From Pirellulaceae bacterium (GTDB taxonomy: Bacteria > Planctomycetota > Planctomycetia > Pirellulales > Pirellulaceae), in assembly GCA_041623895.1 (NCBI GenBank), contig JBFJVZ010000213.1:1-12502 (forward strand): DNA of 12,502 nt. The letters run 5' to 3'. Positions 649 through 12,502 of the stretch are shown one piece after another. The number at the start of each line of letters is the position of its first letter. Position 1 is the stretch's first letter. The translations under genes and the position numbers were made by a program. Below the pieces are notes generated by a model. It was not told the DNA's origin and did not search any database. It saw only the letters and a program-made list of their open reading frames with translations.

Positions 649-2853
649 TTAAGATTCCAACCGCATGCCGCCTGCGCTTTGCACCAGGGCCACTCGCTCT
701 AATCGGCCGACTAAGCTTTCGGTGCGATAAAAAAACTCATCTTCGTTGCCGGGCTCCGGCGGCTGCATGCCCAGAAATACAAATGCCGCGTGGCGGCTGG
801 TCGTTTGAATTGCTGCTGCCGGATCGCTGGAGACAACAACCTTGGTCGTGCCGGTGATTCGAGCTTCTTTCAAAAGCCGATCGAGATGTGAACGGACTTC
901 GTCGATACCAGCTTCTTTTTCAACTACCCGCAACAAACGTAACCGGCGGCCTCGCCAATCGGGATGAGCCAACATCAAGTGCGCCAGCAGCACCATCAAT
1001 TCACCATTGGCACGTCCTCGCCACCAAACGTCGACCGTTCCCGGAGGTGCGGCCCAGTCGTCTTCGGGTTCGTCGGTGCGTCGCAAAACGACCACACTGC
1101 GTCCCAGTTGAGCCAGGTTACGCAGCAGTCCAGCGAAGACTCGCATCCGCTCCACCGTCATCGGAAAACCCAACAGTATTGTGTTCGGTCGCAGTCGACC
1201 CAGACCCTGACATTGAACCAGCGCCTCGATGCCGACCGTATAATCAGCGGCCACCACCAAGGCGGGAAAAGCACTCAGCGAGCGTTCCTTGATCATGGCA
1301 TGCAAAATCTTTTCCTGTGCCTGGCGACGTTCCCCGTGATCGTCCAGATCTCCCGAGATGACTTGTCCCAAAGTCAACACACCGGTCTCCGACGTTAACC
1401 AGCTACCGAAGACGACAAGATGCGGACGTGAGAATCCGGTCCCGCTGAGGGCCAGCACAAAGGGCCGCCAATTCTTGGGATGATAAAGCTGATCCTCCAG
1501 CTTCAGCAGGTTCTGGCGGGTCCGCTCGAACAACAATCCGCTGCCCAAGTCACCCCAGCTAGCGGTCAAGTCAGCACGGCTGAGATACCAATGAAGCACG
1601 CCCACGATGCTGGTCGCCACCAAAGCCCATCGCCAATCGATCAACAGCATGACGAGCCCGCATCCGATCGCGCCGGCCAACGATGTCGACCAATGACAGT
1701 AACGAAATTGTGGACGATAACTGGGGTTGTTGGTGATCGCTTCGTAAAACGTAGCCAGGTTCAAAAGGCCGTAAGTCACCAAGAATGCCATCGTGATCAG
1801 CGGCGCGATCGAGTTCAGATCGGCTAACAAGATGCCGGCTTCCGCGATCAAAAACGTGACGATGATCGCGCGGCGGGGCTCATTTTCGGGCCCGGAGCCG
1901 GCGCCGAGTTTGTCGAGTGGACGAAACAGCCGATCGCGGGCCAGCGATTGAAGAATCCGCGGTGCACCCATCATGCTGCCCAGCGCCGATGAGAGCGTCG
2001 CGGCAAATACTCCGGCTGCGATCAGTGCCGGCAGCAGCGCGATGTCGGCAATGATCAAGTTGTCGCTGATCAACAATTCACGGTCTCGCGAACCAGCCAG
2101 GAAAATCGCTTGCGTGACGTACACCAGTCCCGTCACAACAACGGCGGAAAGCGTGCCCAATGGAATTGAACTGGCCGGATCCTTCAAATCTCCCGACATG
2201 TTCGCGCCGGCCATGATCCCCGTCACCGCAGGAAAAAACAACGCGAACATCGTCCAGAATGTTTCGCCGTCGTATCCCGGTCCAATGTTGGCAGTGAGTT
2301 GTGCAACGTCAAAGTCCTGCCAGGCACCGATATAAAAACTAAATAGCGATGCGACGACCGTCGCCAGAATCACATACTGGACTTTGATTGTCCAACCGGC
2401 GCCGATTCCGACACAAAGACAAACCGCAAGATTGGTAATCGAGGCCACCAGGATCGGAGACGTGCCGGTGGGCAGATACGCCAACATAGCTTCGCTGAAT
2501 CCAATCACATACATCGCCACCGACAGCGCTTGAGCGGCGAAGAACAGGATACCTATCGCGCCGCCGAACTCCGGTCCCAAACTGCGGCTGATCAGAAAGT
2601 ACGCGCCGCCGCCTTCCACCCGCGTGTTGGTGGCAATCGCCGACAATGACAATGACGTCAGCACCGTGATCAATTTGCTGGCCAGCACGATCAGCAACGC
2701 GTACCACACGCCGGCTTGGCCGACCACGTAGCCGAACCGCAGGAACATGATCACGCCCAGGATGGTCAGCGTGCACGGTGTGAACACGCCCCCGAACGTG
2801 CCGAATTGATTGCCTTTGTCGATCCGTTCGATCTGGCTCATGGATTCTGTCAT
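649..2853 (-). CDS. Cation-chloride cotransporter (SLC12/CCC family, APC superfamily) homolog: ~12-TM permease core plus a ~270-aa cytoplasmic C-terminal domain
   Basis: Hallmark CCC/SLC12 signature 'NTRVEGGGAYFLISRSLGPEFGGAIGILFFAAQALSVAMYVIGF' near the N-terminus. Many hydrophobic segments follow, then a soluble C-terminal region (…LGQVISGDLDDHGERRQAQEKILHAMIKERSLSAFPALVVAADYTVGIEALVQ…) typical of the CCC regulatory C-domain. Stop TAA is at 649-651. The ORF track starts at a TTG (2892); I prefer the in-frame ATG at 2851-2853 (MTESMSQIERIDKG…), which leaves a 74-bp intergenic region containing a hairpin. Confidence 0.8.
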   Translation of the reverse strand: MTESMSQIERIDKGNQFGTFGGVFTPCTLTILGVIMFLRFGYVVGQAGVWYALLIVLASKLITVLTSLSLSAIATNTRVEGGGAYFLISRSLGPEFGGAIGILFFAAQALSVAMYVIGFSEAMLAYLPTGTSPILVASITNLAVCLCVGIGAGWTIKVQYVILATVVASLFSFYIGAWQDFDVAQLTANIGPGYDGETFWTMFALFFPAVTGIMAGANMSGDLKDPASSIPLGTLSAVVVTGLVYVTQAIFLAGSRDRELLISDNLIIADIALLPALIAAGVFAATLSSALGSMMGAPRILQSLARDRLFRPLDKLGAGSGPENEPRRAIIVTFLIAEAGILLADLNSIAPLITMAFLVTYGLLNLATFYEAITNNPSYRPQFRYCHWSTSLAGAIGCGLVMLLIDWRWALVATSIVGVLHWYLSRADLTASWGDLGSGLLFERTRQNLLKLEDQLYHPKNWRPFVLALSGTGFSRPHLVVFGSWLTSETGVLTLGQVISGDLDDHGERRQAQEKILHAMIKERSLSAFPALVVAADYTVGIEALVQCQGLGRLRPNTILLGFPMTVERMRVFAGLLRNLAQLGRSVVVLRRTDEPEDDWAAPPGTVDVWWRGRANGELMVLLAHLMLAHPDWRGRRLRLLRVVEKEAGIDEVRSHLDRLLKEARITGTTKVVVSSDPAAAIQTTSRHAAFVFLGMQPPEPGNEDEFFYRTESLVGRLERVALVQSAGGMRLES

Positions 2854-2868
2854 CCTGACGTGCTTAAC

Positions 2869-2923
2869 GTAGGCCAGGAACTGTCCCGGCAAAGCTGCGA
2901 TGCCAGGAAAGATCCTGGCCTAC
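2869..2923 (-). promoter_or_regulatory. Perfect 10-bp inverted repeat (gtaggccagg … cctggcctac) with a 35-nt loop in the TatD–transporter intergenic region; candidate RNA stem-loop (attenuator, processing or stability element) in the 5' leader of the cotransporter gene
   Basis: Seen directly: 2869-2878 gtaggccagg is the reverse complement of 2914-2923 cctggcctac. The loop contains a third partial copy (tgccaggaaa, 2901-2910). On the minus-strand transcript the stem sits 5 nt after the TatD stop (2928) and 15 nt before the ATG at 2853. There is no U-tract, so it is not a classical intrinsic terminator. Confidence 0.35.
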
Positions 2924-2927
2924 ATTC

Positions 2928-3767
2928 CTAGCCGCCGCTGGCTGGCTGGTAGCCGGCATCGCGAGGTGTGAATTGAAAGTTGCGGCTGTTAGCAAAGAAC
3001 GCCAGCGGATTTTCGTATACCACTTTGCGAATCAACGCTTCGCTATGCCCGCGGCGACGCATCTCGAAGATCAAATCGGGTACGGCCGTCGGCTTGCTCG
3101 GCCCCCAGTCGCCCGCCGAATTCGGCATCAAGCGATCAGCACCATACGTCTCAATCATGTCCACGGCTCGCTCGGGCGTGCACTTGGTGACTGGGTAAAG
3201 CGTCATGCCCGCCCAAAATCCACGATCAAGCACTTCGGCAATCGTATGCTCTTCAACATGATCGACCAGCACACGTGAACGATCGACTCGCGCGTCGTCG
3301 CACAACATATCCAGGATCATTCGCGTCCCCTGATACTTGTCCTCCAAGTGCGGCGTATGAATCAAAATCGGCTGCTCATGGTTGACGGCAAGATCAACGT
3401 GCTCCAGGAAAATGGTCGCCTCATTCTTGGTATTTTTATTCAAACCGATTTCGCCGATGCCCAGCACGTTTGGGCAATCCAGGAATTCTGGAATCATCGC
3501 GATCACTTCGCGCGAGAGCGAAACGTTTTCCGCTTCTTTGGCGTTGATGCACAGCCAGGTGTAATGCTGGATACCGAAATTGGCGGCACGCTTCGGTTCC
3601 ACCTCGGTCAATTGTCGAAAATAGTCTCGAAACCCGTCAACGCTGCCGCGATCAAAACCGGCCCAAAAGGCAGGCTCGCTCATCGCCACGCAGCCCATCC
3701 GAGCCAACGTGGCGTAGTCGTCCGTAATCCGAGACACCATGTGAATGTGCGGGTCGATGTAATCCAT
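2928..3767 (-). CDS. TatD-family metal-dependent hydrolase (TIM-barrel amidohydrolase superfamily; putative Mg/Zn-dependent DNase/hydrolase)
   Basis: 279 aa. N-terminal 'MDYIDPHIHM' matches the TatD 'hDxHxHh' metal-binding motif. 'PILIHTPH' (His-rich strand) and 'IGEIGLN' match the conserved TatD 'IGEIGLD' strand. ATG is at 3765-3767 and the TAG stop at 2928-2930. Confidence 0.7.
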   Translation of the reverse strand: MDYIDPHIHMVSRITDDYATLARMGCVAMSEPAFWAGFDRGSVDGFRDYFRQLTEVEPKRAANFGIQHYTWLCINAKEAENVSLSREVIAMIPEFLDCPNVLGIGEIGLNKNTKNEATIFLEHVDLAVNHEQPILIHTPHLEDKYQGTRMILDMLCDDARVDRSRVLVDHVEEHTIAEVLDRGFWAGMTLYPVTKCTPERAVDMIETYGADRLMPNSAGDWGPSKPTAVPDLIFEMRRRGHSEALIRKVVYENPLAFFANSRNFQFTPRDAGYQPASGG

Positions 3768-3824: not shown

Positions 3825-4091
3825 TCAAATCTGCATTTCTTGTCGCCAAGTCGACTCGTACTGGCGGGAAAACAACAATTGCAATCTTTCCGCGCGATCA
3901 GGCCCTTCGCTCAATAGCAAGCGGATCGCCTCGTCCAGCTTCTTGCGACGATCAATCGAACCGTCCGAAAGTGGCGAGCCTTCGTCAGCAGAGCGGTCGA
4001 TACGATCCAGGGTGGCGGCGATTTCCAACAGCTTAGCGCGAACCTCCAAAAACGTTTCATCTAGGATCGCGTCTGCAGGGCGACTGGTCAT
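3825..4091 (-). CDS. Small hypothetical protein (88 aa, charged/helical: MTSRPADAILDETFLEVRAKLLEIAATLDRIDRSADEG…)
   Basis: ATG at 4089-4091. The ORF track extends it to 4268, but that N-terminal extension (MLVTLSSHSPNGISPRIELAEFGDSVGP…) is low-complexity and overlaps the repeat-rich region downstream of the giant gene. A TATAAT hexamer sits 37 nt upstream of the 4091 start. It ends 57 bp upstream of the TatD start and I recognise no family. Confidence 0.4.
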   Translation of the reverse strand: MTSRPADAILDETFLEVRAKLLEIAATLDRIDRSADEGSPLSDGSIDRRKKLDEAIRLLLSEGPDRAERLQLLFSRQYESTWRQEMQI

Positions 4092-4127
4092 AACAGAACT
4101 CGCGGATAGGTGCCGAAAACAAGCTCC

Positions 4128-4133
4128 ATTATA
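4128..4133 (-). promoter_or_regulatory. Candidate -10 element (perfect TATAAT on minus strand) 37 nt upstream of the small ORF start at 4091
   Basis: Plus strand 4128-4133 'attata' gives minus-strand TATAAT. No convincing -35 sits at 17±1 spacing (nearest is TTGCCA, too close). Promoter consensus for this lineage is uncertain. Confidence 0.2.
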
Positions 4134-4230
4134 GGCCAGCTTTGGCAAACTAGCCATGATGCCATGATTGGGCCGGAAGGAAGCGGGCCCGACACTGTCG
4201 CCGAACTCTGCGAGTTCGATCCTCGGTGAA

Positions 4231-4290
4231 ATCCCATTCGGAGAATGGGACGACAGTGTCACCAACATCCCATGCGGAGAATTGGACGAC
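4231..4290. repeat. Imperfect direct repeat, 2 copies of ~24 bp (atcccatTcggagaatGggacgac / atcccatGcggagaatTggacgac), 36 bp centre-to-centre, immediately 3' of the giant gene stop; copy 1 contains the palindrome cattc-gga-gaatg
   Basis: Seen directly: 4233-4254 and 4269-4290 match at 20/22 positions, and the match extends 2 nt further left (atccc). The region also holds a nested inverted repeat, cgacactgtcg (4190-4200) / cgacagtgtc (4251-4260), and a hairpin, cgaact-ctgcg-agttcg (4202-4218). Confidence 0.45.
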
Positions 4291-4295
4291 TTTGG

Positions 4296-7200
4296 CTAAC
4301 CTGGCTGGTCATCGGAGGCGCTGTCAAACGTTTTTTCGATCTGCTGGTAATTCGCCAGCATCGAATCCAACTGGGCACGCAGGCGATCGAGGTCGCGACC
4401 GTTGTCGATCGCTTCGGCCAATAGCGGCCGCAACCATTCTTGCATGAGGTGAAACTGACCTTTAACAAGGTCGGCCAGGACCCGCGGCACCTTGTGCTGC
4501 ACGAATACTTTTTGGTCGGGCGGTTCGGCGCTGGCTTGCTGCTCGGCGATTCTTTCCAGTTGCCGGCCGGTAGCTTGAAGTTTCTCAGCCAACTCCGATC
4601 CCGTGACGGTCAAACTATGACGCAGCGAATCGATCCGCGCGTCCATCCGCTCCTCCGCACCTTCGTCACCGACCGCGATGGCCCGCGAGATGACTTGCCG
4701 GATCGACTCTAAGCCGTCTCGCATGGACGCTAACTGGCGCATCAATTGGGCTGCCTGGTCTTCGTTGTCCATGCCCGCCATGCGGACGCTTTCGACGAAG
4801 GCGTACTTGATCGCGTCCCAACGCTGTTGTTCTTCCGCCGTCAGAATGCCCATCAATTCTTTGAACTTTAGCACATTGGCTTCGTTGTCAGTCGTCAACG
4901 TTTGCGCATCTTGTTCGTAATTGCTGATGATCAACGACTGCAATTCGGCCTCGTTCATGACACTGGCAACACGCTCGGCAATGCGGTTCATGTTGCGGTA
5001 GCTACCCTGTAACTTGAAGGGCGGTTCGGTGCGGTACGTGTCGGCTTGTGCGGCGCTACGGATATAAGTCCGATTGACTCGCAGGACCACATCGCGAACC
5101 CGAATTAGCTTGCGAGTCACTTCGTACATGTCGCGGACCTGATCCATGGAAAAATTGCTTTGCAGCTCCAGCCCCTCCATCGTGTCGCGTTCGGCGGCCC
5201 GGATCACGGCGCGAGCATCCTCCGGCGGCGCGGTCGACAGCGGAGCCAGCGTGGGGTTGCTGGTCAAGCAGTTTTCCAAATAACTCATCTCGAAAGCATC
5301 GGCGGCGTCACCGATGATTTCACCCAAGTTGTAGACGTCCGCACGATTGGACAGCATGTCAGGAATTTGAAATCGTTCACCGCTTTCAGTGTAGGGATTG
5401 CCCGCCATCACGACCGCGACCCGGCGTCCGCGCAAGTCATACGTTCGCGTCTTGCCGTTGCGGACGCCTTCGATCTTTCGCGTTGCATCACACAGCGAGA
5501 TGAATTTCTGTAGCAATTCCGGATGAGTGTGCTGGATGTCGTCCAAATACAACATCATGTTGTCGCCCATTTCCAGGGCAAGATTCAAACGCTCGATTTC
5601 TTCCCGTGCTGCCGCATTGGGCGCTTCGGCCGGATCCAGCGACGTGACACCATGTCCAATCGCAGGGCCGTTGATCTTCATGAAGACAACGCCCAAGCGA
5701 TTGGCGATGTATTCCATCAGCGTGGTCTTCCCGTAGCCGGGCGGCGAAATCAGCAGCAACAGTCCCATACGATCAGTACGCTTGTCTTCACCGGCCGCGC
5801 CCATCTGCTTGGCCAAGTTATCGCCGACCAGCGGCAGGTACACTTCATCGATCAGGCGGTTGCGAACAAAACTGGTCAATACGCGCGGTTTGAATTCATC
5901 CAACCGCATTTCTTCGCGCGACTGGTCAACAATCCGGTTTTTCGTTTCATGTAATTCCCGGAAACGGGGCACGACGTCTTCACGGTAGCGGCGGACGCGC
6001 CTCAGTAATTCGTGGTAGTGGATGACGTATTTGCCTTTGTTGATCCGGGGATGGCTGCCCGCCAAACCTTCCAACGTGCCGGCCACGGAGGCGTCCGCGA
6101 TACGCATGGCGGATGTGCCGCCCGCCTGGATGATCCAGGCCAGTTCATCCGCATAATATTCAGCTGGATCAGCTTCGTCGTGCCTGCCATGAGTTTGCAA
6201 AAACGCGTTTGCCCAGTTACGAGCCAGTATGAACGCTTTGACCGGATCGGCATCGGCCGTTTTGATCGCTTGCGTCAGCAATTTGTCGCGGTCTGCTTCG
6301 GGGATCGCCGCTAAAAATTCATCAAACAGCCTGGCCGCTTTGCCGCTGCAAACCGGTTTGCGGGGTGTGGCGATCAACTGGTCAAACAAGTAGCCGGCGA
6401 TTCGCTCGGCAGACACATCGCGGCCGAAAACTGGCTGCCAAAGATTACGATCGACCTCAGCCAACTCGGCCAGCCGACTGCGAAATTCGACGGCAGGCTG
6501 AGCTTTGGGATACGCTTTTGCAAGTTTTGCGAAGCCACCGATCCAATCGGTCATTGCTTTCCGATCCTTTGCCGCCAGCAATCGGCCATACCACAGCTGG
6601 GAAGCGGCTCGCAGCGAAGGCGGATGTCGCAATAAGTCAATCATCCCGTCAATCTCCAGCAAAGACTTCAGGATTGCCGCTGTGTCTTGATCGTGAACGC
6701 CCTTGGCATAACCTTCATCAAATCGTCCGGCGATCTGGGTTTGCACCCAAGCTGCGTCAAGCTTGGCGGGGTCCGTCGGTAGTTCAGGATGCTCGAACAA
6801 ATCGATGGCCAGGAATTCGGCGCGATAAACGTCTTGGTTCTCGCTGACCAGTTCTTGATTCCAGAGATCCTTAGCGGCGCAGAGGGCTTCGTCGCTCAAT
6901 GGCTGAAAATACTGCGTTCCCGTCAGGTGCAAACACATGGCGCCATCGCGAACGACGGTTGTCAGATCTAAGGGCTGCGTATTGACGGCAAATCGCTTGT
7001 CACCCAAGCGAATCACATCGCCACCGTCTTCATACAGATCTTGCCGATCTTTCAGCTGTCGGGTTGCGTCTTCCCGAATCGTTTTGAGTCGACTTTGCAG
7101 GTCACCCACGCGAACGGCATCATCCAGCTCGCCGAGCTGCGTGATGATGTCGCGAATCTTTTCGACCATCAGATCGCCGGCAAAGTACGCGGCGATTTCG

Positions 7201-9539
7201 TCAGTCGATTCCATCGCGCGAATCCGGGTGTCGATTCCTTTCAGAATGCGGCTGGCTGCCGCGGACAAAGATTCCGCCCGCCGATTTCGCTTTTCAATCA
7301 ACGCAACTTTGCGTGATTCGAATGCTGCATAAACTTCCTCGCGACGAGTAGCCAATTGGACGACAAACTCGTCGAATTCAGCAAAGCGTCCTTCCAACTC
7401 TTCTATTTGGACCATCACTTTGGTCAAGTACTCGTCGCACTTATCGGGCGAGTCACAGACATCCAGATATCCTGAAGTGGTTTGTTGCAGCAGTTTCAGT
7501 TGAGATGCGAATTCGGCGCGACCTTCAACGCTGACCAGTTCGCTGACCCGGGCCTTCAACGCGCTTCGAACTCGGTTGAGCGAAGCAAACACGTCGCCGA
7601 TCGAGTCGATGATCTCCGTCCGTTTGGTGGCATCATCGATCCGCAGATTGCTAACGGTTTCGGTCAACAGCTCCAGCTGAGACGCTGCCTGATCAATTTC
7701 TTCACCCAGTTTCTTTGCTTCGGCGACGGTGGCGACTTCGCCGACTTTGGCTGCGGCGGTTTCCACGCGCTGCTCGTAGGGCACAAGCGATCCTGGAGTC
7801 AGCAAAAAATCGACGCAGCGGCGGCTAATTCTTTCGGCCCGCTCGGCCGTCGATTTTTCAAGCTCTTCGATGATCGACTCGTCGACATAGCGCAGCTCTT
7901 TCAGTCCCAGCGCGTGTCCCCGCTGCTCGCGCAATTGAGCCAAGGCGGAAACGAAGTCATCAATCGACTCGAAACGGCTTCGCTCAATGTGCTTGATCAA
8001 CTCGCCGATCGCTTTTTGCACCTCGGCCGTCCGCTGGGATGTATCACCTCGAACGCGGACGACTTTCTCGTATTCCTCGACAGCCGCCTTGGCCGCCTCG
8101 CGAATCTTCTGCAGCGGCTCGGCCAGATTTTCGGTTTCTTGCTTGTCGATCCAGAAGTGGCTGTCCAGTACATCCGACGATTTCTTTACCAAGTCGACGT
8201 ACAAGCCGTCGTAGCTGTCTTCCTTGTCGATCAGCTGCAACAGTTCGCTGCATTCGGCCATCCCGCGGACGATTTCTTTGTTGCCGATTTTGAAGAGCAG
8301 TGAATCGGTTTTCTTATCAGCGACGTAGTTGGCGCCGGTAAACGGTGTTTGCCAGATTTGGATCGCGTGGTGTTTTTGCGGCTCCTGTCCGCCGCCAAAG
8401 CAAACCATTTCGCCGCCTTCGAACAGCGTCTGGCCGTGGCAAACCAGCGGCGTGTCGACGGTATGTTTGATGACGTTGTAGCGGAGTTGCAGGTAAGTCC
8501 CATGTTCGGGCGAATAGAACAGATACAGGTAGTCTTCGCCGTTGGATGAGGCGACGGTGCGTTGATATCGCATGTCGGTCAGCCCGTGGTCGAATTGCTT
8601 GAATTCGCCTGTTTGCAAATAGTAGCCGCCCGGAAAAATCAAGCCCTGGTCGCTCGGCAACATCACGCAACACTGTTCGATGTCGTCCAGACGCATCGCT
8701 TGCTGGATCTTGCCGTTGTAGACCAGGTAACGCGTTTGTTGTTCCTGATACGGCCGCATCTTTAGCAGTATCAGGTTGCCGACGATCGTGTAATGGATCT
8801 CGGCGTCATCCAGCGTTTGGTCACGATGCTCGACCGGCTCGGCGTAGATTCCTTCGCCGCTATCGGTGTTGTTTTCCACCTTAATTGTCAAGTCACCGCC
8901 AACGGTCTCGACAAAGATACGGTCCGCGATAGAGATATGTGGATGGGCGCCATAATGGTGCTGGTCACGGTTGGTTCGCAGCCAGCGGAATTCGTGTTGA
9001 TCCGGGTCACGGACTTCGTGTTCGCTACGATTATCCAGGTACTCGATCGAATCGGGCGTCATGCGCCACTTGAATGTCTTGATATCGCGGGTTGTTTTTC
9101 CAACCTGAAAGACCATGTGCAAGATTGGCCCGGCGCGAAAGAAGCGGGCAAAAGTCGTGCCTTTATAGAAACGATACAACTCGTGAAAATCGTTCCTGAA
9201 CCGATCGTCACCAATCAATTCGAGCGAATCGCTGTGGAATTGATGGTCGGCAAACCGGTAGACCGAAAAGACATCAGCGAGTCCGATCTCCGTTTTCAGG
9301 CCAAACTGAACGTTGTAGCCAAACAGAAACTTGTCACCGATCGAAACCAGATCACGCGGCACGCAATTGTGCTCGGTGGTCACGCGCTCGGTTGTCAGCA
9401 ACGTGGTTTCGATGTTGCCGAAGACCTCGCCGCGAGCTTCGTTCAGTCTGGCCAACCGCGTGCGCAAATCTCCCGCTGCGTCCCGCAATCGATTGCGAAG
9501 AACCTCATAGGTGCCGGCAGCGAGTTGGGTGTCGGTCAT
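4296..9539 (-). CDS. Giant (1747 aa) multidomain protein with one MoxR/AAA_5-type AAA+ ATPase module; flotillin-associated; function unknown
   Basis: Single uninterrupted ORF from ATG 9537-9539 to TAG 4296-4298. Architecture by eye: residues ~1-480 are beta-rich with many W/Y/F/H (…FSVYRFADHQFHSDSLELIGDDRF…YLYLFYSPEHGTYLQLRYNV…). Residues ~480-1130 form a charged helical/coiled-coil region. Residues ~1140-1330 are the AAA+ module: Walker A 'LLLISPPGYGKTTLMEY', Walker B 'MMLYLDDIQHTHPELLQKFISLCDA' (MoxR-like hhhhD[DE]IN/Q…LLxxhxE), and sensor-1 region 'RRVAVVMAGNPYTESGERFQIPDMLSNRADVYNL' resembling MoxR 'ATQNPxExEGTxxLPEAQLDRF'. A ~420-aa helical domain follows at the C-terminus. Confidence 0.85.
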   Translation of the reverse strand: MTDTQLAAGTYEVLRNRLRDAAGDLRTRLARLNEARGEVFGNIETTLLTTERVTTEHNCVPRDLVSIGDKFLFGYNVQFGLKTEIGLADVFSVYRFADHQFHSDSLELIGDDRFRNDFHELYRFYKGTTFARFFRAGPILHMVFQVGKTTRDIKTFKWRMTPDSIEYLDNRSEHEVRDPDQHEFRWLRTNRDQHHYGAHPHISIADRIFVETVGGDLTIKVENNTDSGEGIYAEPVEHRDQTLDDAEIHYTIVGNLILLKMRPYQEQQTRYLVYNGKIQQAMRLDDIEQCCVMLPSDQGLIFPGGYYLQTGEFKQFDHGLTDMRYQRTVASSNGEDYLYLFYSPEHGTYLQLRYNVIKHTVDTPLVCHGQTLFEGGEMVCFGGGQEPQKHHAIQIWQTPFTGANYVADKKTDSLLFKIGNKEIVRGMAECSELLQLIDKEDSYDGLYVDLVKKSSDVLDSHFWIDKQETENLAEPLQKIREAAKAAVEEYEKVVRVRGDTSQRTAEVQKAIGELIKHIERSRFESIDDFVSALAQLREQRGHALGLKELRYVDESIIEELEKSTAERAERISRRCVDFLLTPGSLVPYEQRVETAAAKVGEVATVAEAKKLGEEIDQAASQLELLTETVSNLRIDDATKRTEIIDSIGDVFASLNRVRSALKARVSELVSVEGRAEFASQLKLLQQTTSGYLDVCDSPDKCDEYLTKVMVQIEELEGRFAEFDEFVVQLATRREEVYAAFESRKVALIEKRNRRAESLSAAASRILKGIDTRIRAMESTDEIAAYFAGDLMVEKIRDIITQLGELDDAVRVGDLQSRLKTIREDATRQLKDRQDLYEDGGDVIRLGDKRFAVNTQPLDLTTVVRDGAMCLHLTGTQYFQPLSDEALCAAKDLWNQELVSENQDVYRAEFLAIDLFEHPELPTDPAKLDAAWVQTQIAGRFDEGYAKGVHDQDTAAILKSLLEIDGMIDLLRHPPSLRAASQLWYGRLLAAKDRKAMTDWIGGFAKLAKAYPKAQPAVEFRSRLAELAEVDRNLWQPVFGRDVSAERIAGYLFDQLIATPRKPVCSGKAARLFDEFLAAIPEADRDKLLTQAIKTADADPVKAFILARNWANAFLQTHGRHDEADPAEYYADELAWIIQAGGTSAMRIADASVAGTLEGLAGSHPRINKGKYVIHYHELLRRVRRYREDVVPRFRELHETKNRIVDQSREEMRLDEFKPRVLTSFVRNRLIDEVYLPLVGDNLAKQMGAAGEDKRTDRMGLLLLISPPGYGKTTLMEYIANRLGVVFMKINGPAIGHGVTSLDPAEAPNAAAREEIERLNLALEMGDNMMLYLDDIQHTHPELLQKFISLCDATRKIEGVRNGKTRTYDLRGRRVAVVMAGNPYTESGERFQIPDMLSNRADVYNLGEIIGDAADAFEMSYLENCLTSNPTLAPLSTAPPEDARAVIRAAERDTMEGLELQSNFSMDQVRDMYEVTRKLIRVRDVVLRVNRTYIRSAAQADTYRTEPPFKLQGSYRNMNRIAERVASVMNEAELQSLIISNYEQDAQTLTTDNEANVLKFKELMGILTAEEQQRWDAIKYAFVESVRMAGMDNEDQAAQLMRQLASMRDGLESIRQVISRAIAVGDEGAEERMDARIDSLRHSLTVTGSELAEKLQATGRQLERIAEQQASAEPPDQKVFVQHKVPRVLADLVKGQFHLMQEWLRPLLAEAIDNGRDLDRLRAQLDSMLANYQQIEKTFDSASDDQPG
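5330..5770 (-). other. MoxR/AAA_5-like ATPase module inside the giant ORF (Walker A encoded ~5721-5741, Walker B ~5535-5557, NP…E…G…R sensor/arginine region ~5340-5411)
   Basis: Reverse complement of 5721-5760 encodes MGLLLLISPPGYGKTT, and of 5535-5557 encodes LYLDDIQ. Motif spacing (Walker A to Walker B ~60 aa; Walker B to NP motif ~45 aa) is typical of AAA_5/MoxR ATPases, not classical-clade AAA. Confidence 0.7.
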
Positions 9540-9668: not shown

Positions 9669-11798
9669 TTACGCCTTTTTTCCGTTGCTGCCTGCGGCTG
9701 TGGCGGTCAGCAATCGTCCTGCCTTTTGATCAGCGATGTTGGCGGTTCCGGCCATGCCCAACAAGCTGGTCAACTGCGACTTGACGTCTTCGGTGTCAGC
9801 CAATCCCATCATTTTGGCGATCAACGCCGCGATGGAAAGATCTTTGACGCCGTCGGTATCCAAGTTGAATTGACTGATCATGCTGGTCAGTTGGTCCTTA
9901 AAATACTCCGCATTGCCGTCAAAGAATGTGTCCTTGATGTCGGTCGCGACACGGCTGTTGTAGACGAATCGGTCGATCGCCTTGCCGCCTTTGACAGCGG
10001 AAGTGATCTGCTCGAAGAATTCGCCGTCGCCACCGACAATATCGATGCGAGCTGACTTGAGTGCGTCGCCGATCACACCCGCCTGACTTTCGGCAATGCC
10101 GCGCTGCGCGTCGATAGCTGCGATCTCGACGTCCTTTTCTTTGTTCAGCTGCAGCTTGAATTCTTCGTGTTCCTTGCCGACGCTGTCCAAGACCTTCATG
10201 GCTTCGGCTTTCTCGGTAATTCCGGTCGCTTCGCTGCGGTACTTTTCCAAGTCGACGTTGGCTTCGGCCAGTCCCTGCTTTTCGATCGCGGCTGCTTTTG
10301 CTTCGATGCCCTTGGCTTCGGCAACGGCTTTCTTCTCCAAGACGACTGCCTCGGCGGTGCCCTCTTTTTCCAAGCTGACAGCTTTGGCTTCCTGCACGGT
10401 CGCATCGGCCAAACCGGGAGCCGCCTTGGTGGCAGCGGTGGCTTCGGCCAGCATTTTCTGGGCAGCGGTGTCTTTTTCCGCAGCATCTTTTTTGGCTTCG
10501 GCTTCGATACGAATCTTTTCCGCCAACAGCTCGCTGGCTTCTTTTTCAGCCTGAGCAAGTTTGGTTTGGCGAATCAGTTCTTCTTCGGCCTTCATCTGAG
10601 CGGCGGTGATTTGCACCTTCTTTAGTCGCTCGGCCAGGGCGAATTCTTCGGTGTCCTTGATCCGTTCCTGTTCTTCGACAACCGCTCGTTCGACGGCAAC
10701 ACGCTCGCGAATCACTTCCTGGATATTCCGTTTTTCGACTTCAATCGCCTTTTCCTTTTCGACTTCAGCCACGCCGACGACGCGTAATCGTTCGGTCGCT
10801 TCCAAATCGCGATCACGATTCACTCGTTCCAGTTCGACCGCATCGGTCTTTTCTTTATTGCGCTGAGCGACCAGAACTTGGCGCAGTTTGTTTTCTTCGG
10901 CAACACCGAGTTCTTCTTCGGTGGCGATCCGCGCCCGCTCGGCTTGCAGCCGTTGTTCTTCCTCGACCTTTTTAGCCGACGCTTGTTCGCGGGCAGTAAT
11001 CTCAGCGATTTCACGTCTCTGCTTTTCAACCGCTTCCACGCGCTGGCGTTCCAATTCCAGGATCGTTTCTTCTGCCTCGACGTCTTGCTTCTTGAGCGTC
11101 TTTTCTTTGTCGCGAGTGAACTGGTTTTCCTTGACTTTTTCCTGGGAGGTCAGCTCGGTAATCTTCTTGATACCTTCGGCATCAAGAATGTTGCTGGGAC
11201 TGAGCATTTCCAGCGGAGTTTGTTCCAGGTAGTCGATCGCAGCATCATCCAGGCAGTATCCATTCAGGTCAGTGCCGATCACTTTCAATATTTGGTCTTT
11301 GAACTTATCACGTTGGTCATAAAGTTCGACGAAATCAAAATTCTTGCCAACGGTCTTAAGTGCTTCACTGAATTTGGCGTCAAACAGTTCTCGCAATGTC
11401 TCCAGTTCGCTACAGCGTTTGGCACCAATCGACTGCGCGACTTCTTTCATTTGCTCTTGGGTGCTGTCGACGCGAATGAAGAAAGCGACTTTGATATCGG
11501 CACGAATGTTGTCGCGGCAAATCAATCCCTCGCTGCCTTGACGACTGATTTCAAAGCTTTTCAGCGTCAAGTCCATGTATTCATAGCGATGAATCAACGG
11601 AATGATTAGCCGACCGCCGGCGGAGGTCACATCCAAACCGCCCATGCCGGTTTTTACGATCGCTTTGTCAGGACCGACAACGATGTATTGTTTCTTGGCG
11701 ATGATTGCGACCAAGATCAGAACCACGAGGATCAGAATTACTATGATCCCCACGATCTGAGAGTTTTCGAGTGCTAGCAGTAAAAATGCGAGGCTCAC
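9669..11798 (-). CDS. Flotillin-family protein (SPFH/band-7 domain; YqiK/FloT-like) with an N-terminal transmembrane anchor and an unusually long Ala/Glu/Lys-rich coiled-coil 'flotillin' tail (709 aa)
   Basis: GTG start at 11796-11798 overlaps the upstream gene's TGA (GTGA). The N-terminal hydrophobic helix is 'IVGIIVILILVVLILVAIIA'. The SPFH-like core is 'YIVVGPDKAIVKTGMGG…RLIIPLIHRYEYMDLTLKSFEISRQGSEGLICRDNIRADIKVAFFIRV…'. A ~400-aa EA-rich heptad-like region follows (…AEAKKDAAEKDTAAQKMLAEATAATKAA…VAEAKGIEAKAAAIEKQGLAEA…) with a conserved-looking C-terminal flotillin end. TAA stop is at 9669-9671. Confidence 0.85.
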   Translation of the reverse strand: MSLAFLLLALENSQIVGIIVILILVVLILVAIIAKKQYIVVGPDKAIVKTGMGGLDVTSAGGRLIIPLIHRYEYMDLTLKSFEISRQGSEGLICRDNIRADIKVAFFIRVDSTQEQMKEVAQSIGAKRCSELETLRELFDAKFSEALKTVGKNFDFVELYDQRDKFKDQILKVIGTDLNGYCLDDAAIDYLEQTPLEMLSPSNILDAEGIKKITELTSQEKVKENQFTRDKEKTLKKQDVEAEETILELERQRVEAVEKQRREIAEITAREQASAKKVEEEQRLQAERARIATEEELGVAEENKLRQVLVAQRNKEKTDAVELERVNRDRDLEATERLRVVGVAEVEKEKAIEVEKRNIQEVIRERVAVERAVVEEQERIKDTEEFALAERLKKVQITAAQMKAEEELIRQTKLAQAEKEASELLAEKIRIEAEAKKDAAEKDTAAQKMLAEATAATKAAPGLADATVQEAKAVSLEKEGTAEAVVLEKKAVAEAKGIEAKAAAIEKQGLAEANVDLEKYRSEATGITEKAEAMKVLDSVGKEHEEFKLQLNKEKDVEIAAIDAQRGIAESQAGVIGDALKSARIDIVGGDGEFFEQITSAVKGGKAIDRFVYNSRVATDIKDTFFDGNAEYFKDQLTSMISQFNLDTDGVKDLSIAALIAKMMGLADTEDVKSQLTSLLGMAGTANIADQKAGRLLTATAAGSNGKKA
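10190..10560 (-). repeat. Cryptic degenerate repeats (recurring tggcttcggc / ttggcttcg motifs every ~50-60 bp) underlying the Glu/Ala/Lys-rich coiled-coil of the flotillin gene
   Basis: The motif (t)ggcttcggc recurs at ~10201, 10261, 10313, 10441 and 10493, with the variant ggcttcctg at ~10384. All alternative frames here give Ala/Ser-rich ORFs, which explains several spurious ORFs in the track (10096..10554, 10167..10625, 10196..10558). Confidence 0.3.
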
Positions 11799-12502
11799 AG
11801 TCGTGTCTCCGCTTCAAGATTGGTGACGGTGTAAATTCGTTTTTCGCTATCGAACCCGACAATCCGCACTTCCGTTCCCTTCGGAATTGTCGATCCATTG
11901 GTGCGCACATTTAGCAGTAGGGGGGACGCGTCCGTACGAAACTTAGCTTGCCCGAACGTGGGGGTTGCCTCAATCGAGGAAATTTCGCAAGTGCAACCCA
12001 TCAAATGATCCTTGTTGTACTTCGTCGGCTCAACAAAAAATCGAAGCATCGGTTGCGTAAAACCCTTGGTGACTGCAGTGGCAATCACAAAATTGCGAAT
12101 CGTCAGCAATGTGCTGGACATCCACGTCGGCGGAGAATAGTTATTCACGTCGAATGTGAACCACAGCCATGCCGAAACGGCCCAAAACGCGATCGTGAAA
12201 ATCCCTCCCCAGATGACGATCGGCAATCGCCCAAAGTTGGTCCAGCGGACAGCCATCCCACCGAGCCCACCGAACAAGTCGCTGGAAACTTCGGGCAAAT
12301 CTCCATCCGGCGCATCGACGCCCACATCCGGAACATCGACACCCACGTCGGGCACATCAATATCAATGTCCACATCCAGATCGACGTCCGGCGCGCCGAA
12401 GTCCAAATCGACTAAGCCAATCGCAGCCAGCAGCGTGTAGCCGATCATCAAACACGCAAGGATCGACGCCGGCCATAGGGGACCAACAAAGATTTCCTCG
12501 AA
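11795..12502 (-). CDS. NfeD-like / YqiJ-like membrane protein (partial; 5' end beyond the right edge of the window) with TM helices, an acidic (D-V/I-D) repeat linker and a C-terminal OB-fold-like beta domain
   Basis: The reading frame is open to the window edge (…FEEIFVGPLWPASILACLMMIGYTLLAAIGLV… is hydrophobic and TM-like), so the track's start at 12451 is internal. A second TM 'LPIVIWGGIFTIAFWAVSAWLWF' follows. The C-terminal 'GQAKFRTDASPLLLNVRTNGSTIPKGTEVRIVGFDSEKRIYTVTNLE' resembles the NfeD C-terminal beta-barrel (OB-fold) found in stomatin/flotillin operon partners such as E. coli yqiJ (upstream of yqiK). A 4-nt GTGA overlap joins it to the flotillin gene. Confidence 0.7.
   Translation of the reverse strand, partial: FEEIFVGPLWPASILACLMIGYTLLAAIGLVDLDFGAPDVDLDVDIDIDVPDVGVDVPDVGVDAPDGDLPEVSSDLFGGLGGMAVRWTNFGRLPIVIWGGIFTIAFWAVSAWLWFTFDVNNYSPPTWMSSTLLTIRNFVIATAVTKGFTQPMLRFFVEPTKYNKDHLMGCTCEISSIEATPTFGQAKFRTDASPLLLNVRTNGSTIPKGTEVRIVGFDSEKRIYTVTNLEAETRL
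12313..12400 (-). repeat. In-frame 21-bp tandem repeat (~2.5-4 units: catcgacgcccacatccggaa / catcgacacccacgtcgggca / catcaatatcaatgtccacat…) encoding the acidic PDVGVDV/PDVGVDA/PD… linker of the NfeD-like protein
   Basis: Seen directly in DNA and in the translation 'DLDVDIDIDVPDVGVDVPDVGVDAPDGDLPE'. The units diverge progressively, consistent with a slippage-prone, length-variable low-complexity linker. Confidence 0.5.

Follow-up and report, generated by a model that had tools for sequence, protein, structure and literature searches.

Bacterial flotillins, SPFH/NfeD pairs and PspA/ESCRT-III proteins have been studied intensively for their part in membrane organisation and repair. In FtsH-HflK/C and Vps4-ESCRT-III, AAA+ machines are paired with SPFH cages or ESCRT-III polymers. 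We know of no dedicated energy source for the remodelling of SPFH/NfeD or PspA scaffolds in bacteria. Among the AAA+ proteins, MoxR relatives work as hexameric rings, and NorQ/NorD and CbbQ/CbbO are MoxR-type ATPase/vWA pairs in metal-cofactor insertion.

The closest described system is an operon reported in silico in a 2024 comparative-genomics study of PSP systems (PMC11237479). Its components include a 3TM protein of the YqiJ/YuaF type and sometimes CesT/Tir-PspA and a PLD hydrolase. In one sentence, with no structure-level analysis, that study independently offers the same functional suggestion as the one reached below. A 2025 review states that a Vps4-like ATPase appears to be absent in bacteria (PMC7619361). 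We analysed a 12,502-nt stretch of DNA (the window) from a Pirellulaceae bacterium, contig JBFJVZ010000213.1, which carries a gene for a giant ATPase. The protein belongs to the same family as that of PMC11237479, as seen from the contexts in Bacterioplanes and on pQBR103, and it lies in the same operon, from which nothing essential differs; the form in the window is the 'abbreviated operon' of that study, without an adjacent PspA gene. Searches of the literature for DUF3686/PF12458, DUF7902/PF25472, IPR020958 and 'DNA repair ATPase' together with SPFH found no paper under those names, nor did we find an experimental study of a DUF3686 ATPase. A paper on SPFH evolution and another on SPFH proteins of P. 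aeruginosa make no mention of the ATPase. Beyond PMC11237479, the present analysis adds placement of the AAA+ module among MoxR-like folds, the spectrin-like rod, the invariance of the motifs including a D-D Walker B, linkage statistics, and the occurrence of PspA downstream of the ATPase in Phycisphaerae.

The DUF3686 family and its gene neighbourhood

The cassette in the window consists of three genes.

11795..12451, minus strand: NfeD/YqiJ-like membrane protein, 218 aa, first gene of the cassette
9669..11798, minus strand: flotillin-like SPFH protein, 709 aa, directly upstream of the ATPase gene (PF01145 Band_7, E=1e-9)
4296..9539, minus strand: giant ATPase, 1747 aa (ORF list and translation)

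The single giant ORF described in the initial annotation was confirmed as uninterrupted. Its N-terminal part matches PF12458 (DUF3686) at residues 24-462 with E=3e-189 and 629.6 bits (cutoff 25), and the profile is covered end to end (positions 1-448 of 448). PF25472 (DUF7902) matches at residues 585-666 (E=5e-28), and AAA, AAA_5 and RuvB_N give weak Pfam matches at 1251-1385. The order of PF12458, PF25472 and a C-terminal AAA module with SPPGYGKT, DDIQH, GNPYT and QGSYR is collinear with a family of proteins of 1600-1900 aa. A word-indexed search found more than 5600 related proteins at E<1e-10, most often under the NCBI name 'DNA repair ATPase', and an exhaustive search found 739 clusters at 50% identity that match the DUF3686 N-domain, complete members being 1600-1930 aa long. 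The initial annotation had called the architecture unusual; with such numbers, it is instead the standard layout of the family. Full-length collinear homologues share 66-88% identity in Pirellulaceae, where Stieleria, Rubripirellula, Rhodopirellula and Novipirellula hold the nearest relatives, and 30-64% in other phyla.

When one genome per species was scanned, relatives were confirmed in at least 588 species genomes. They occur in Planctomycetota, Bacteroidota, Verrucomicrobiota, Desulfobacterota, Kiritimatiellota, Clostridia, Acidobacteriota, Myxococcota, Gammaproteobacteria, Actinomycetota and Deinococcota, and some of the hosts are tractable, among them Pseudomonas fluorescens SBW25 (pQBR103), Proteus mirabilis, Vibrio campbellii, Flavobacterium, Hymenobacter, Streptomyces and Deinococcus. 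The protein in the window is an ordinary planctomycete member of this large, catalogued family. An apparent fusion of NfeD1b_N to DUF3686 in P0134 was rejected as a probable gene-calling artefact, the linker resembling out-of-frame junk.

The best functional clue, which is missing from the initial annotation, is the linkage to an SPFH/NfeD gene pair. We counted neighbours at 63 related loci with at least 3 kb of upstream sequence, from Planctomycetota, Bacteroidota, Verrucomicrobiota, Desulfobacterota, Kiritimatiellota and Clostridia. In 60/63 of them the next gene upstream, in the same orientation, encodes an SPFH homologue, with E values of about 1e-180 to 1e-255 even between phyla, and in 54/63 an NfeD-like gene precedes the SPFH gene; at the three loci lacking SPFH the neighbours are unrelated. 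The triad is also present in Deinococcus and Gammaproteobacteria. Linkage of the ATPase to the SPFH/NfeD pair is thus near-obligate. In the window, the stop codon of the NfeD-like gene overlaps the start of the SPFH gene (GTGA), and the 129-nt gap between the SPFH and ATPase genes contains no minus-strand terminator-like site. Rfam gave no match in the window. The downstream genes for a 147-aa protein and a TatD-like protein are not conserved as neighbours. In some lineages the SPFH and ATPase genes are separated by small ORFs. A fourth core component was looked for among these and rejected, since they are mutually unrelated and form no conserved family.

Both partners are membrane proteins. 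The SPFH protein has an N-terminal TM anchor (within aa 1-43), an SPFH/Band-7 domain, an E/A/K-rich coiled coil and a C-terminal region; its profile had no match in the PDB at E<=0.1. The NfeD-like protein has an acidic, D/V/P-rich N-terminus, a hydrophobic segment at 76-97 and a C-terminal NfeD-like region whose match to PF01957 NfeD is weak (E=0.0095, under the Pfam cutoff), and it fits the 'YqiJ/YuaF-type' component of PMC11237479. The ATPase has no TM segment: its maximum KD19 hydropathy is 0.96 and there is no hydrophobic segment, and it is therefore expected to be soluble.

Several features of the cassette would fit an anti-phage or inter-bacterial conflict system, in which the large NTPase would be a sensor/effector and its propeller the sensor domain: the size and propeller-plus-NTPase layout of the protein, the variable small ORFs just mentioned, and the presence of the cassette on some megaplasmids, e.g. 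pQBR103. However, no cassette protein has a significant match in PADLOC-DB 2.0, where the sole match is of the coiled region of the ATPase to LmuB (E 0.003, 13.7 bits) and the neighbours have none. Neither a set of 50,697 phage genomes nor IMG/VR contains a member of the family, 10 of its 13 matches in a plasmid collection are non-mobilizable, the upstream flanks of the cassette are stably syntenic across Pirellulaceae genera, and Pfam finds no nuclease, protease or other effector domain. We consider this role improbable.

PspA_IM30 genes, confirmed with Pfam, adjoin the cassette in 22/83 loci at varying positions. They precede the NfeD-like gene in Bacteroidota, Kiritimatiellota and Gammaproteobacteria, and directly follow the ATPase gene at two Phycisphaerae loci. 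In Bacterioplanes the order is DUF2170(YjfI)-PspA-NfeD-like-SPFH-DUF3686 ATPase, and pQBR103, a Pseudomonas fluorescens megaplasmid, holds the same set, the triad there being appended to an operon of YjfI, PspA, rhomboid, DUF2491, DUF350, DUF1190 and glutathionylspermidine-synthase-like genes. This operon is of the yjfI-pspA...yjfC type. No PspA adjoins the triad in Pirellulaceae, which holds for the window up to its ends. The ATPase might be specifically an ATP-driven factor for disassembly or recycling of PspA/ESCRT-III-type polymers, a Vps4 analogue for which SPFH/NfeD is merely the platform that recruits PspA. PspA is a recurrent neighbour, found in at least four phyla with two gene orders, the SPFH protein YdjI of B. 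subtilis is reported to localise PspA at the membrane, and a Vps4-like ATPase is said to appear absent in bacteria (PMC7619361). We hold this narrower reading to be rather unlikely.

Domain anatomy outside the AAA+ module

The protein was modelled with AlphaFold2 in two parts on 49-sequence alignments, residues 1-860 at a pLDDT of 84.8 and residues 830-1747 at 79.6. A crude heptad-periodicity scan did not discriminate, and the model was used in its place. The following parts were delimited.

8304..9539, minus strand (aa 1-412): N-terminal helix and beta-rich, aromatic-rich, divergent beta-propeller-like domain (PF12458/DUF3686)
7035..8300, minus strand (aa 414-835): helical rod of spectrin-like three-helix bundles, containing DUF7902 (aa 585-666)
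5910..7016, minus strand (aa 842-1210): middle region (AlphaFold2 model; no family or fold match obtained)
5250..5858, minus strand (aa 1228-1430): single AAA+ alpha/beta core (AlphaFold2 model and motifs)
4770..5249, minus strand (aa 1431-1590): conserved lid/helical domain (invariant columns and AlphaFold2 model)
4299..4757, minus strand (aa 1595-1747): variable, low-confidence helical tail (AlphaFold2 model)

The N-terminal 480 residues are rich in W/Y/F/H as first noted (15.2% compared with 9.8% in the whole protein) and are beta-rich in the model. A helix at aa 10-40 is followed by a domain of about 28 strands at aa 46-397, which is propeller-like in Foldseek; blade-versus-blade comparison with hhalign detected no internal repeats. 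The rod is modelled as at least 10 helices of 14-58 residues each. The middle region comprises a beta unit (842-880), a globular helical domain with pLDDT above 90 (906-1139), a second beta unit (1146-1174) and a long helix (1175-1210). The coiled coil of about 650 aa proposed in the initial annotation is thus not one element in the models but a rod, small beta units and a globular helical domain. The C-terminal third is helical, as had been described, and ends in a tail with pLDDT 44-63, a mean conservation of 0.16 and 47% gaps across the family. The tail was considered as a fused PspA-like segment and this was rejected (hhalign probability 0.3%).

Conservation was counted over an alignment of 61 full-length members with 30-64% identity. 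The mean frequency of the top residue is 0.75 in the AAA core, the highest of all parts, 0.52 in the propeller, 0.40-0.48 in the rod, 0.34 in the middle region, which is the lowest among the folded parts, and 0.16 in the tail.

These values bear on the proposal that the protein is mainly structural, a spectrin-like sub-membrane tether or skeleton for flotillin microdomains in which the AAA module would be a nucleotide switch, not a motor. The spectrin-repeat-like bundles, which span about 420 aa, would suit such a skeleton, and the invariant D-D Walker B described below could slow hydrolysis. Whole-length Foldseek searches also match clathrin, nucleoporins, IFT-A and Elp1, which are scaffold proteins with a propeller and helical repeats, but these matches are weak, with TM only ~0.1. 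Conservation is far higher in the AAA core and lid than elsewhere in the protein, all catalytic-type residues are invariant, and the rod is much less conserved, from which catalysis is argued to be central. We judge a mainly structural role unlikely.

The AAA+ module

The motifs quoted in the initial annotation are all present (GYGKTT at 1268-1273, LYLDD at 1330-1334, AGNP at 1379-1382 and SNRAD at 1397-1401), as is the single AAA module; neither Pfam nor the AlphaFold2 model shows a second one. Its position, given at about 1140-1330, was about 100 residues too early, the core lying at 1228-1430. Walker A is S-P-P-G-Y-G-K-T-T at 1265-1273 and Walker B is L-Y-L-D-D at 1330-1334. Sensor-1 is N1381 in G-N-P-Y-T, and R1399 is a candidate arginine finger. 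In the lid, a block with R1503, P1506-x-F1508 and Q-G-S-Y-R at 1511-1515 is a candidate sensor-2, the QGSYR sequence being placed at the N-terminus of a helix in the model. In all 61 members of the alignment, the residues S1265-P-P-G-Y-G-K-T1272, D1333, D1334, Q1336, H1337, G1380-N-P-Y-T1384, R1399, R1503, P1506, F1508 and Q1511-G-S-Y-R1515 are invariant. The degeneration of Walker motifs in orthologues that had been raised as a possibility is therefore not seen, and conservation of the candidate sensor-2 and arginine finger, which had also been proposed for checking, is complete. Walker B is invariably D-D, not D-E. Judged from these residues, the protein looks like an active ATPase.

The closest solved folds to the module are NorQ and CbbQ, followed by midasin and dynein. 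The NorQ alignment covers 226 of its 254 residues and therefore includes the lid, so that a MoxR-like AAA+ fold with its lid is present. In the model a beta-hairpin at 1355-1368 lies between the post-Walker B helix and the sensor-1 strand, which is the pre-sensor-1 position; at the helix-2 position (1291-1308) short helices sit within a loop, and no clear hairpin is seen. PF07728 AAA_5 scores 22.9 bits against the full protein (cutoff 22) and 27 bits against the AAA+lid segment, is matched by 14/14 family members (best E 6.6e-9, profile positions 2-126 of 139), and is the sole Pfam model aligned across nearly the whole AAA core. In contrast, PF07726 AAA_3, the profile of MoxR proper, does not match the protein at E<=1 and is matched by just 6/14 members, with a best E of 0.016. 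Searches of PDB sequences with the protein, a family profile and an AAA+lid profile returned about 35-70 P-loop residues of p97, Rix7, NVL and RuvB; such matches are uninformative, and placement of the module in a clade by sequence is ambiguous. Because AAA_5 is matched throughout, AAA_3 is essentially unmatched and the modelled fold is MoxR-like, we assign the module as MoxR/AAA_5-like in its predicted structure and not as a member of the MoxR family proper (AAA_3/COG0714). The description of the module as MoxR-like thus stands for the structural type and not for the MoxR-proper profile.

Compared with NorQ, CbbQ and RavA, the giant ATPase is six times larger, carries its propeller, rod and middle domain on the N-terminal side of the AAA module, has a D-D Walker B and essentially no AAA_3 match, and lacks a clear helix-2 beta-hairpin insert in the model. 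Its likeness to NorQ and CbbQ is what would favour a canonical MoxR-type chaperone, for example one for metal-cofactor insertion, with a vWA/MIDAS partner encoded elsewhere. Against this, no vWA gene occurs within about 10 kb in four annotated contexts, no ORF in the window has a vWA Pfam match, AAA_3 fails to match most members, and the conserved partner is SPFH/NfeD instead. The protein itself has no D-x-S-x-S motif over its entire 1747 aa, in agreement with the initial annotation. A canonical chaperone role is very improbable.

Midasin (Rea1/Mdn1) and dynein contain six concatenated AAA modules, with a MIDAS domain in midasin and a microtubule-binding stalk in dynein, while the giant ATPase has one module per chain, and unlike midasin it has no MIDAS domain. 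It also differs from both in being bacterial, in having its adaptor domain at the N-terminus and in its linkage to membrane scaffold genes. It had been likened to a single-headed mechanoenzyme of this style; since MoxR relatives act as hexameric rings, 'single-headed' is by analogy unlikely.

The names given by Pfam ('ATPase involved in DNA repair' for PF12458/DUF3686) and NCBI ('DNA repair ATPase') would make the protein a DNA repair enzyme. The feature that agrees with them is a weak RuvB_N P-loop match of about 45 residues around Walker A. Scored on the whole protein it stays under the 27-bit cutoff at 24.6 bits; scored on the AAA+lid segment alone it reaches 27.2 bits. A score above the family cutoffs joined to a DNA-related context was not found, and a function in DNA repair is hardly credible. 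We regard the name as a historical and misleading label that finds no support in this analysis.

Proposed role in membrane-scaffold remodelling

Since the ATPase adjoins a flotillin-like gene pair almost always, it most likely remodels membrane scaffolds and does not repair DNA, as far as gene context and sequence can tell. More specifically, we propose with a probability of roughly 55% that it serves the SPFH/NfeD(-PspA) membrane module as a dedicated remodelling ATPase. The SPFH/NfeD linkage, the operon signals, the PspA linkage, the invariant motifs, the fold affinities, the topology of the three proteins and the suggestion in PMC11237479 all point to this role. The pairing resembles FtsH-HflK/C and Vps4-ESCRT-III, in that an AAA+ protein goes together with SPFH or PspA/ESCRT-III-family genes, here by operon linkage.

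In this reading the giant ATPase is a soluble, cytoplasmic AAA+ protein of the MoxR/AAA_5 structural type. It completes, as a dedicated third member, a conserved membrane module encoded by three genes, the others being those of the NfeD/YqiJ-like membrane protein and the TM-anchored, flotillin-like SPFH protein. The analysis shows the domain anatomy, the conservation of the motifs, the affinities of the folds and the linkage of the genes; from these we infer the oligomeric state, the binding partners and the direction of the reaction as follows. By analogy with NorQ, CbbQ and RavA, its AAA+ modules may form a ring, from which each subunit would extend a spectrin-like rod tipped by the beta-propeller-like domain. 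On the cytoplasmic side, the propellers could bind the SPFH/NfeD assembly, PspA (ESCRT-III-type) polymers recruited to it, or both, and ATP hydrolysis would power assembly, remodelling or disassembly of these scaffolds in envelope stress or membrane maintenance.

A bolder version of the remodelling role, which we put forward as doubtful, is that the protein is the ATP-dependent remodeller long sought for bacterial membrane scaffolds, a MoxR-type ring with six spectrin-like arms ending in propellers. If so, it would grip flotillin-type SPFH cages, PspA (ESCRT-III) polymers or both, and assemble them or strip them off the membrane. It would then fill the role that Vps4 has in archaea and eukaryotes and that is described as absent in bacteria (PMC7619361).

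The locus in the window is a typical planctomycete member of the family and holds no new biology beyond that. For the family as a whole, the 'DNA repair ATPase' annotation misdirects users of thousands of genome records. Because DUF3686 proteins are widespread, locked to SPFH/NfeD and repeatedly joined to PspA, they are an obvious candidate for the energy source of scaffold remodelling, and comparative sequence analysis makes the family a strong candidate for an energy-dependent remodeller of bacterial flotillin and PspA scaffolds.

Catalytic motifs and C-terminal tail of the giant ATPase

The following features of the 1747-aa DUF3686 protein were examined:

5538-5555, minus strand: Walker B (aa 1329-1334)
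4299-4757, minus strand: C-terminal helical tail (aa 1595-1747)

AAA+ ATPases usually carry D-E at Walker B. In contrast, D-D (D1333, D1334) is invariant in the giant ATPase family, being found in 61/61 of the aligned full-length members. Walker A likewise begins with S-P-P-G rather than G-P-P-G. These features might point to slow or regulated hydrolysis.

The C-terminal helical tail, which was modeled with low confidence, varies by lineage. Planctomycetota and Desulfobacterota have it, whereas most Bacteroidota and Verrucomicrobiota lack it. We also considered the tail as a PspA-like segment; it is not PspA-like, and this assignment was rejected.

Limits and integrity of the cassette

Within the SPFH gene, a stretch at ~10000-11500 shows strongly negative AT skew (to -0.37), with GC falling to 0.49. 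Since this stretch overlaps the E/A/K-rich coiled-coil coding part of the gene (minus strand), the skew and GC dip are compositional, and a foreign insert at this position was rejected.

Three genes lie past the 3′ end of the ATPase gene:

3825-4268, minus strand: 147-aa ORF
2928-3767, minus strand: TatD-like hydrolase
649-2892, minus strand: 747-aa protein, AA_permease (E=5e-60) and Solute carrier family 12 (SLC12) C-terminal domain (E=5e-20)

The 147-aa ORF had no Pfam match. The two closest related loci (L004 and L005) carry homologues of both this ORF and the hydrolase, but these sit farther beyond the 3′ end of the ATPase gene, by ~3.3-4.1 kb, and both genes are therefore placed outside the cassette. 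The domain architecture of the planctomycete 747-aa protein resembles that of cation-chloride cotransporters.

In some Bacteroidota, Verrucomicrobiota and Desulfobacterota loci (L024, L031, L035, L037 and L072, among others) an insert of 0.5-2.4 kb separates the SPFH and ATPase genes; the small ORFs within these inserts are mutually unrelated. One metagenomic protein, P0134 (1345 aa), is an apparent fusion with an NfeD1b_N (ClpP-like protease) domain upstream of DUF3686. Its linker is R/P/G-rich and junk-like, so the fusion is probably a read-through gene call. Even so, it indicates that in that genome a long-form NfeD gene directly precedes the DUF3686 gene.

PspA genes beside the cassette

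PspA-containing loci in other genomes included:

L021, 6790-7479: PspA_IM30 gene, Phycisphaerae, immediately 3′ of the giant ATPase gene
L081, 4766-5449: PspA_IM30 gene, Phycisphaerae, same position
L085, NC_009444.1 84437-97641: pQBR103, Pseudomonas fluorescens SBW25 megaplasmid

In Bacteroidota, Kiritimatiellota and Gammaproteobacteria, in contrast to Phycisphaerae, PspA precedes the NfeD-like gene. Thus the gene order in which PspA joined the cassette differs between phyla. On pQBR103 the NfeD-like/SPFH/giant-ATPase triad is joined to a complete yjfI-pspA-rhomboid-DUF2491-DUF350-DUF1190-glutathionylspermidine-synthase-like operon, and this plasmid in P. fluorescens SBW25 is an experimentally tractable system.
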